Below are positions 1 to 499 of a DNA stretch of 499 nt, one piece after another. Numbering within the stretch: the first letter of the stretch is position 1; every line of letters starts with the position of its first letter. Position numbers and translations under genes: made by a program. The DNA comes from a phage: the sequence record EF517069.1; one strand, given 5' to 3'. The notes beneath the pieces were generated by a model. It was given only the letters and a program-made list of their open reading frames with translations, did not search any database and was not told the DNA's origin.

Positions 1-239
1 TTCAGGCAATCTTAGAGAAAGATATGCTGCATCTATGTAAGCAGGTCGGCTCAGGTGCGATTGTCCCCAATGGTAAACAGAAGGAAATGATTGTCTAGTT
101 CCTGACACACGGTATGGAAGGATTGATGACATTCGTAGTACGTACATCATTTCGTGAGGCCATTAAGGACATGCACGAAGAGTATGCAGATAAGGACTCT
201 TTCAAACAATCTCCTGCAACAGTACAAGAGGTGTTCTGA
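1..239 (+). CDS. 5.5: T7-group gene 5.5 (H-NS-binding host-takeover protein), 5'-truncated by the window edge and interrupted by an in-frame amber codon at 96..98; nonsense allele
   Basis: Frame 3 (codons from position 3) translates as QAILEKDMLHLCKQVGSGAIVPNGKQKEMIV, then TAG, then FLTHGMEGLMTFVVRTSFREAIKDMHEEYADKDSFKQSPATVQEVF, then TGA at 237..239. This matches my recollection of T7 gp5.5 residues ~22-99, with Gln expected where the TAG sits. The TGA overlaps the ATG of the next gene, as in T7. Identity is from memory, not a search. Confidence 0.8.
96..98 (+). other. In-frame amber (TAG) codon within gene 5.5, probably derived from CAG (Gln) by a C-to-T transition at position 96
   Basis: TAG at 96..98 is the only stop in a frame that is otherwise open from the window start to the TGA at 237..239. 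Sequence on both sides of it is gp5.5-like. Confidence 0.75.
227..233 (+). promoter_or_regulatory. Shine-Dalgarno / ribosome-binding site for gene 5.7
   Basis: AGAGGTG at 227..233, 5 nt upstream of the ATG at 239..241; purine-rich match to the anti-SD. Confidence 0.7.
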
Positions 240-448
240 TGTCTGACTACCTGAAAATGCTGCAAGCAATCAAAAGTTGCCCTAAGACTTTCCAGTCCAA
301 CTATGTACGGAACAATGCGAGTCTCGTAGCGGAGGCCGCTTCCCGTGGTCACATCTCGTGCCTGACTACTAGTGGACGTAACGGTGGCGCTTGGGAAATC
401 ACTGCTTCCGGTACTCGTTTTCTGAAACGAATGGGAGGATGTGTCTAA
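239..448 (+). CDS. 5.7: T7-group gene 5.7 protein (69 aa; reported inhibitor of sigma-S-dependent host transcription)
   Basis: The ORF track gives a 69-aa ORF, MSDYLKMLQAIKSCPKTFQSNYVRNNASLVAEAASRGHISCLTTSGRNGGAWEITASGTRFLKRMGGCV, which matches my recollection of T7 gp5.7 in length and sequence. The start ATG overlaps the upstream TGA (TGATG) and is preceded by an SD; the stop TAA is at 446..448. Confidence 0.9.
   Translation: MSDYLKMLQAIKSCPKTFQSNYVRNNASLVAEAASRGHISCLTTSGRNGGAWEITASGTRFLKRMGGCV
433..439 (+). promoter_or_regulatory. Shine-Dalgarno / ribosome-binding site for gene 5.9
   Basis: GGGAGGA at 433..439, 8 nt upstream of the ATG at 448..450. Confidence 0.75.
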
Positions 449-499
449 TGTCTCGTGATCTTGTGACTATTCCACGCGATGTGTGGAACGATATACAGA
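448..499 (+). CDS. 5.9: T7-group gene 5.9 protein (RecBCD nuclease inhibitor), N-terminal 17 codons only; 3'-truncated by the window edge
   Basis: ATG at 448..450 overlaps the gene 5.7 TAA (TAATG). Translation MSRDLVTIPRDVWNDIQ matches my recollection of the N-terminus of T7 gp5.9. A strong SD lies upstream. Confidence 0.85.
   Translation, partial: MSRDLVTIPRDVWNDIQ

Follow-up and report, generated by a model that had tools for sequence, protein, structure and literature searches.

Gene 5.5 of bacteriophage T7 encodes a protein (gp5.5) that, according to the annotation of the T7 genome (V01146), permits growth on lambda lysogens and binds H-NS, the binding site being the oligomerisation domain of the latter (PMC6936261). 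T7 survives without the gene, its plaques and burst being smaller (PMC4635203). The V01146 annotation and this paper agree with an initial annotation of the DNA described here, in which the gene had been called non-essential, but needed for H-NS antagonism and for growth on lambda lysogens. A 5.5-5.7 fusion, which extends into the following gene, is also annotated in T7 (phrog_17900).

T7 genomes with a heavy mutational load are available as isolates K, K115, P and P82 (AY264775-AY264778), which we take to be the nitrosoguanidine mutation-accumulation lines of Bull et al. 2003. When isolate K is compared genome-wide with its ancestor (AY264774), 411 substitutions are found, i.e. a density of 1.05%, 387 of which are G:C>A:T; four tandem substitutions are present in the genome, and 18% of its 499-nt windows contain at least 8 substitutions. 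G:C>A:T changes also dominate after treatment of T7 with nitrosoguanidine or hydroxylamine in another study (PMC6042481). In the known isolates the mutated G follows a purine at 15 of 16 sites (p = 1e-4). Nonsense codons in the mutagenised isolates are confined to dispensable genes. In isolate K, TGG>TGA changes interrupt genes 4.7 (W48), 5.7 (W52) and 5.9 (W13), and in isolate P genes 0.4 and 4.2 are annotated only as 'similar to'. The build-up of nonsense codons in dispensable genes of chemically mutagenised T7 is, therefore, already documented in AY264775-AY264778. Isolate K (AY264775, locus L003 307-674), despite the nonsense codons in 5.7 and 5.9, was deposited as a complete phage genome. 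These two codons would leave K without the RpoS/RNA polymerase inhibitor and without the RecBCD inhibitor.

The classical T7 amber mutants of the Studier collection were reportedly made with hydroxylamine or nitrosoguanidine. They are said to affect essential genes, to have been selected as conditional lethals and to carry few linked changes.

The interrupted gene 5.5 and its homologues

The stretch of DNA analysed here (499 nt in all, hereafter the window) corresponds in positions 1-499 to nucleotides 16,912-17,410 of T7 (V01146) apart from 8 changes, as established by megablast and base-by-base comparison, wild-type T7 being the best whole-window megablast match (98.6%). It contains the last 78 codons of gene 5.5, the entire gene 5.7 and the first 17 codons of gene 5.9, with the following features:

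3..95, + strand: gene 5.5 codons 22-52, the protein being identical to T7 gp5.5 residues 22-52; codons 1-21 lie upstream of the window
96..98, + strand: amber TAG in place of CAG (Gln53) of gene 5.5, by C>T at T7 nt 17,007
99..239, + strand: gene 5.5 codons 54-99 and TGA, matching T7 gp5.5 residues 54-99 except for R96Q
114..239, + strand: ORF of 41 aa starting at Met59 (residues 59-99), with an in-frame ATG 15 nt after the amber codon
209..232 (T7 17,120-17,143), + strand: site of the wild-type RNA hairpin AUCUCCUG / CGGGAGGU, predicted, 8 bp
225..227, + strand: gene 5.5 codon 96, CGG>CAA (R96Q), with the tandem GG>AA at 226-227; also the Shine-Dalgarno region of gene 5.7
239..448, + strand: gene 5.7, intact, 69 aa, with V7M (257) and synonymous C>T at 322 and 418; its start overlaps the gene 5.5 stop
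448..499, + strand: start of gene 5.9 (RecBCD inhibitor), cut by the window end, with synonymous C>T at 459 and G>A at 499 in codon 18

The TAG at 96-98 sits in frame 3, which is the frame of gene 5.5, and alignment with T7 turns the 'about codon 53 of 99' of the initial annotation into exactly that codon. At position 96 (T7 nt 17,007) T7 has C and the window T, so that codon 53 changes from CAG (Gln) to TAG; the single C-to-T transition that had been proposed is thus what comparison with V01146 reveals. Frame 3 translates as QAILEKDMLHLCKQVGSGAIVPNGKQKEMIV, interrupted by the internal TAG at 96-98, and continues as FLTHGMEGLMTFVV...TVQEVF up to the terminal TGA at 237-239. The split of the reading frame is borne out, besides the T7 alignment, by the Pfam profile PF11247 (Phage_T7_55), which is matched on either side of the TAG, in one and the same frame and above the gathering score (cut-off 25 bits): the upstream part (window 3-95) aligns with profile positions 22-52 (E 1.7e-17, 63.8 bits) and the downstream part (window 114-236) with positions 59-99 (E 2.3e-24, 85.9 bits). 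A chance stop in a non-coding frame is ruled out, the TAG being the sole interruption of a gene 5.5 ORF that is otherwise 98-99% conserved.

The gene order is that of T7: the gene 5.5 TGA (237-239) overlaps the gene 5.7 ATG (239-241) in the sequence TGATG at 237-241, and gene 5.9 follows, both neighbours being within the window; the position downstream of the DNA polymerase gene 5 (with gene 5.3 in between in T7) is deduced from the identity with T7. Locus, frame and neighbours 5.7 and 5.9 are, therefore, common to the window and T7 (V01146 / AY264774), and so are gp5.5 residues 22-52 and 54-99 except for R96Q. However, T7 has CAG at codon 53 where the window has TAG, which makes the 99-aa protein impossible without suppression, and the window's gene 5.5 lacks the uninterrupted ORF of 96-102 aa found throughout the family. 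By sequence and gene order the window's copy belongs to PF11247, as a disrupted allele (pseudogene or amber allele).

No T7-group reference carries TAG at codon 53 or a shorter gene 5.5, either of which would have made the stop an ordinary feature of the group. Codon 53 is CAG (Gln) in 8 natural T7-group phages (67-95% protein identity) and in 3 laboratory isolates. A search of 5.8 billion proteins returned gp5.5 homologues in 58 cluster representatives, all of 96-102 aa, none of which ends near residue 52. Among 48 of these that were aligned, the most distant with 40% identity, 47 have Gln and 1 has Lys at position 53, and 40 have Arg at position 96, the other altered residue. The TAG allele itself was not encountered elsewhere: a 38-mer centred on the TAG had no match in 50,697 phage records, an exact 30-mer including the TAG had 0 matches in each of the viral, metagenome and genome contig sets, and a codon-degenerate TAG pattern had 0 matches in the viral and metagenome contigs, the corresponding CAG pattern, used as a control, matching 8 viral contigs. 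Exact protein look-up retrieved no record for either gp5.7 V7M or the 41-aa downstream ORF.

Other irregularities of the gene are found among the relatives. The homologue P0024 (102 aa, from a 39.8-kb contig) resembles gp5.5 to about residue 77 and is then wholly divergent (…AIKDNRTKSIPIRTASSYLLQLYGRCSDV); its C-terminus looks frameshifted into the region of the 5.7 frame, as a natural or assembly-derived disruption. In PV596790 (Yersinia phage vB_Yep_9, locus L010 240-748) genes 5.5 and 5.7 are unannotated, with an intact 5.5 ORF whose product is 93% identical to T7 gp5.5; to judge by this ORF, their absence from the record is an annotation gap rather than a gene loss.

The effect of the amber codon on the protein can be gauged from an AlphaFold2 model (pLDDT 86, pTM 0.70), which was built on the homologue P0001 (97% identical). 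The model contains helices at residues 19-37 and a long one at 45-81, so that residue 53 falls within the latter; the part of the protein downstream of the stop holds the invariant G58 and R72 and a conserved SPATV-EV tail. Without suppression by the host, residue 52 would be the last to be translated, and the truncation would remove most of the predicted helix 45-81, both invariant residues and the conserved C-terminal tail. Because of the loss of these elements, gp5.5 function, including H-NS binding, is likely to be lost in the 52-residue fragment, as sequence conservation and model both suggest. The 5.5-5.7 fusion must also be abolished by the amber, so that the H-NS-binding protein and the fusion would both be missing. 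The ORF that starts at Met59 is a possible source of a weak reinitiation product, no GGAGG-like Shine-Dalgarno sequence being visible upstream of its ATG. In a supE host Gln53 would be restored. The initial annotation had anticipated the wild-type protein there, but codon 96 is changed from CGG to CAA and the suppressed product would still be R96Q. A search by sequence for a solved gp5.5 structure gave none, the weak matches to legumain being presumably due to chance.

The substitutions of the window and the mutagenised T7 genomes

The amber is one of 8 changes with respect to T7 within the 499 nt (1.6%), all of which are G:C>A:T:

96, + strand: C>T, gene 5.5, Q53 to amber
226 and 227, + strand: G>A and G>A, gene 5.5, R96Q, tandem in one codon
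257, + strand: G>A, gene 5.7, V7M
322, + strand: C>T, gene 5.7, synonymous
418, + strand: C>T, gene 5.7, synonymous
459, + strand: C>T, gene 5.9, synonymous
499, + strand: G>A, gene 5.9, first base of codon 18 (Gly)

Neither A:T>G:C changes nor transversions are found in the window, and strand bias is absent (four changes are C>T, four G>A). Eight natural relatives, compared with T7 over this stretch, show 380 substitutions, of which 92 (24%) are G:C>A:T; at this rate all eight changes would be of this type with a probability of about 1.2e-5. The derived bases of the window are all absent from the 8 aligned natural relatives and from isolates K, P and P82, which marks them as mutations newly arisen in T7 and not as products of recombination.

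The mutated G has a 5' purine at 6 of the 8 sites, against a background of 47.5% (p = 0.11, eight sites only), a tendency that is consistent with an alkylation signature, with too few sites for proof; at this p-value the bias does not allow a distinction between nitrosoguanidine, hydroxylamine and a deamination artefact. When TC and WRC motifs were considered as signs of a cytosine deaminase, the TC context was found at none of the eight mutated C's. The synonymous share (3 of 8) is close to the 34% expected for random G:C>A:T hits in genes 5.5, 5.7 and 5.9 and gives no hint of purifying selection. A stop codon can arise by G:C>A:T at no more than five G:C sites of gene 5.5 (Q22, Q35, Q47, Q53 and Q90). 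With the rate of the window (8 changes in 240 G:C sites), we calculate a probability of about 16% that the gene acquires one or more stops; an amber is, therefore, unsurprising under the mutational load of the window.

The spectrum is that of the mutagenised isolates. In the same stretch, G:C>A:T accounts for 5 of 5 changes in P (AY264777), 10 of 10 in K (AY264775) and 5 of 5 in P82 (AY264778), i.e. 20 of 20 together, so that a T7 background with an almost exclusive G:C>A:T spectrum is common to the three isolates and the window. Isolate K, the sole one measured genome-wide, also resembles the window in its density of about 1% and in its tandem substitutions; the corresponding figures for the window (8 of 8 G:C>A:T, density 1.6% and one tandem) come from a single 499-nt stretch, from which the genome-wide spectrum and density of its lineage are extrapolated. 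The tandem GG>AA at 226-227 fits the four adjacent double substitutions of K. The nonsense codons of the isolates fall, like the amber of the window, in dispensable class II genes, in K even in the neighbours 5.7 and 5.9. On the other hand, gene 5.5 is intact in K, P and P82, whereas it bears the amber in the window, and the window shares no mutation with these three isolates, the ones compared over this stretch. The identity of the window with K, P or P82 is accordingly rejected on the basis of zero shared mutations, which points to an independent lineage of the same kind. GU071092 was considered as a sibling record and rejected, being an unrelated cyanophage.

Like the Studier ambers, the window has a CAG>TAG change of the type that a G:C>A:T mutagen induces, at which supE could in principle bring back the wild-type residue. 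It differs from them in that the affected gene is dispensable and in that seven more changes are found within 499 nt.

Origin of the amber codon

In the light of the spectrum, the density and the match to published mutagenised genomes, the amber probably represents a null allele carried as a passenger by a T7 lineage that had been chemically mutagenised. A T7 genome would have been exposed to a G:C>A:T-specific mutagen, most likely an alkylating agent such as N-methyl-N'-nitro-N-nitrosoguanidine, with hydroxylamine as a possible alternative, and would have accumulated substitutions at about 1.6% of positions. Clustered mutations are typical of nitrosoguanidine. The C>T at T7 nt 17,007, by which Gln53 (CAG) becomes an amber codon, would have been one of the substitutions of this lineage, and the resulting null allele would have persisted or been fixed as a passenger by drift or bottlenecks, rather than having been selected as an amber mutant. 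Since gene 5.5 is dispensable on ordinary laboratory hosts, a null allele could indeed persist in this way. The initial annotation had left open whether the stop was a laboratory amber allele, a natural variant or a sequencing error, and the accompanying changes had gone unnoticed in it; with eight G:C>A:T substitutions in 499 nt the stop is not isolated, and the question of its origin is largely settled in favour of a mutagenised lineage over a designed amber or a natural variant.

How the same eight changes could arise without a mutagenised phage has nevertheless to be considered. Cytosine deamination of the template, a low-coverage consensus or an in-silico alteration, whether deliberate or accidental, might generate them, and deamination damage, in particular, yields exclusively C>T and G>A as found in the window; that none of the eight changes is present in any other database sequence searched, and that the 5'-purine bias of the window does not reach significance (6 of 8, p = 0.11), would also suit an artefact. 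However, it is rare for damage to affect as much as 1.6% of a consensus; real sequenced mutagenised T7 genomes resemble the window in density, in tandem changes such as its GG>AA and in the tendency towards a 5' purine; and the mix of synonymous and nonsynonymous changes with a stop in a dispensable gene is the pattern of a viable mutagenised phage, so that an artefactual origin is considered unlikely. A gene 5.5 amber mutant made deliberately with hydroxylamine or nitrosoguanidine and kept on a suppressor host, which would translate TAG (as Gln in the case of supE), would explain the spectrum equally, CAG>TAG being the canonical amber route for G:C>A:T mutagens and the wild-type residue being a Gln that supE can restore. 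Seven further changes in 499 nt are, though, far more than a mutant picked after a single round of mutagenesis would be expected to carry, and since gene 5.5 is non-essential, conditional lethals in it could not easily be screened for other than on lambda lysogens. The T that follows the TAG is a poor context for suppression, which also counts against a deliberate mutant. No 5.5 amber allele was reported in the literature covered by a full-text search or present in database records, and a deliberate origin appears quite improbable.

Amber codons may also be tolerated when they are read through, as in a lineage evolved on an RF1-deficient or amber-suppressing host, which would make full-length gp5.5 with a substituted residue 53. 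Evolution of T7 with an expanded genetic code has been carried out (PMC8923235, where mutagenised T7 lineages and an earlier expanded-code T7 study are also cited), but the genomes obtained gained virtually no amber codons and fixed only about 10 substitutions per genome. An origin of the window in that amberless/selenocysteine T7 evolution was rejected for this reason, about 10 substitutions per genome comparing with 8 in 499 nt. Moreover, Gln53 is almost invariant, so that a bulky non-canonical residue is unlikely to have been favoured, and there is no indication of the host within the window; recoding of the codon is, all told, a very remote prospect. As to a wild T7-like phage with a pseudogenised gene 5.5, in one version hypermutated by a host DNA cytosine deaminase, disruption of the gene does occur, as the frameshifted C-terminus of P0024 exemplifies, and genes 5.5 and 5.7 lack annotation in the record of the Yersinia phage, where the 5.5 ORF is intact. 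Against such a variant stand the T7 background without substitutions of the natural type (P ~1e-5), the absence of strand bias and the lack of any mutated C with a 5' T, which argues against TC-preferring deaminases, and it is scarcely to be believed.

If the window derives, as is preferred here, from a mutagenised laboratory lineage, the proper annotation for a T7-like sequence in which gene 5.5 is broken is a pseudogene or an amber allele of such a lineage; to describe it as a naturally short variant or as a novel gene architecture would be wrong. The window would represent one more case of the known pattern by which nonsense codons gather in dispensable class II genes (5.5 here; 4.7, 5.7, 5.9, 0.4 and 4.2 elsewhere). 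Should the strain exist, it would also provide a ready-made 5.5-null (suppressible by supE to Q53, still R96Q) for the study of H-NS antagonism and lambda rex exclusion.

The junction of genes 5.5 and 5.7 and the downstream genes

The amber stops the ribosomes translating gene 5.5 at a distance of 141 nt from the overlap of the 5.5 stop and the 5.7 start, in agreement with the approximately 140 nt given in the initial annotation, in which a weaker translational coupling into gene 5.7 had been envisaged. The upstream stop on which that argument was based is real; what the argument left out is the GG>AA at 226-227, which falls in the Shine-Dalgarno sequence of gene 5.7 and in a hairpin. In T7 RNA the Shine-Dalgarno sequence CGGGAGGU (225-232) is predicted to pair with AUCUCCUG (209-216). 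The local minimum free energy of the hairpin is -10.8 kcal/mol in T7, -11.6 kcal/mol in the distant relative CHRF_10027 and -5.3 kcal/mol in the window, where a structure other than the hairpin has the lowest energy; the z-scores are weak. Since the paired bases are also constrained by the protein that they encode, covariation is not assessable. The folding predictions fit a coupling of 5.7 to 5.5 through ribosomes that unfold the hairpin.

The GG>AA weakens the hairpin and, at the same time, shortens the Shine-Dalgarno sequence of gene 5.7, and the net effect of amber and GG>AA on gp5.7 synthesis cannot be predicted. It might be supposed that the double change was selected as compensatory, uncoupling 5.7 from 5.5 once the amber had cut gp5.7 expression. 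In wild-type T7 the ribosomes finishing gene 5.5 would have to open a conserved hairpin that sequesters the 5.7 Shine-Dalgarno sequence; with the amber, the expression of gp5.7, an inhibitor of the host RNA polymerase, would fall; and the GG>AA, by destabilizing the hairpin by about 5 kcal/mol, would free 5.7 from this dependence. Such a selective origin is speculative and quite improbable, but, if true, it would provide direct evidence that coupling in the T7 5.5-5.7-5.9 cluster is mediated by structure. Independently of how it arose, the combination of the amber and the GG>AA pair could serve as a test of translational coupling into gene 5.7.

The window has no match in Rfam, and a promoter/terminator scan of it yielded only minus-strand consensus matches at chance level. 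One of these, a sigma-70-like match on the minus strand at window 97-70 (TAGACA, 16 nt spacer, TACCAT; 9 of 12 positions), overlaps the amber codon; it is regarded as due to chance, given the rate in shuffled sequences and the fact that the wild-type TGGACA equals it when compared with TTGACA.

The product of gene 5.7 matches PDB 5lgm ('Fusion protein 5.5/5.7') over all of its 69 residues, from which it differs at V7M and at residue 42 (Ala in 5lgm, Leu in T7 and in the window). The G>A at 257 responsible for V7M also makes a second in-frame ATG six codons into gene 5.7.
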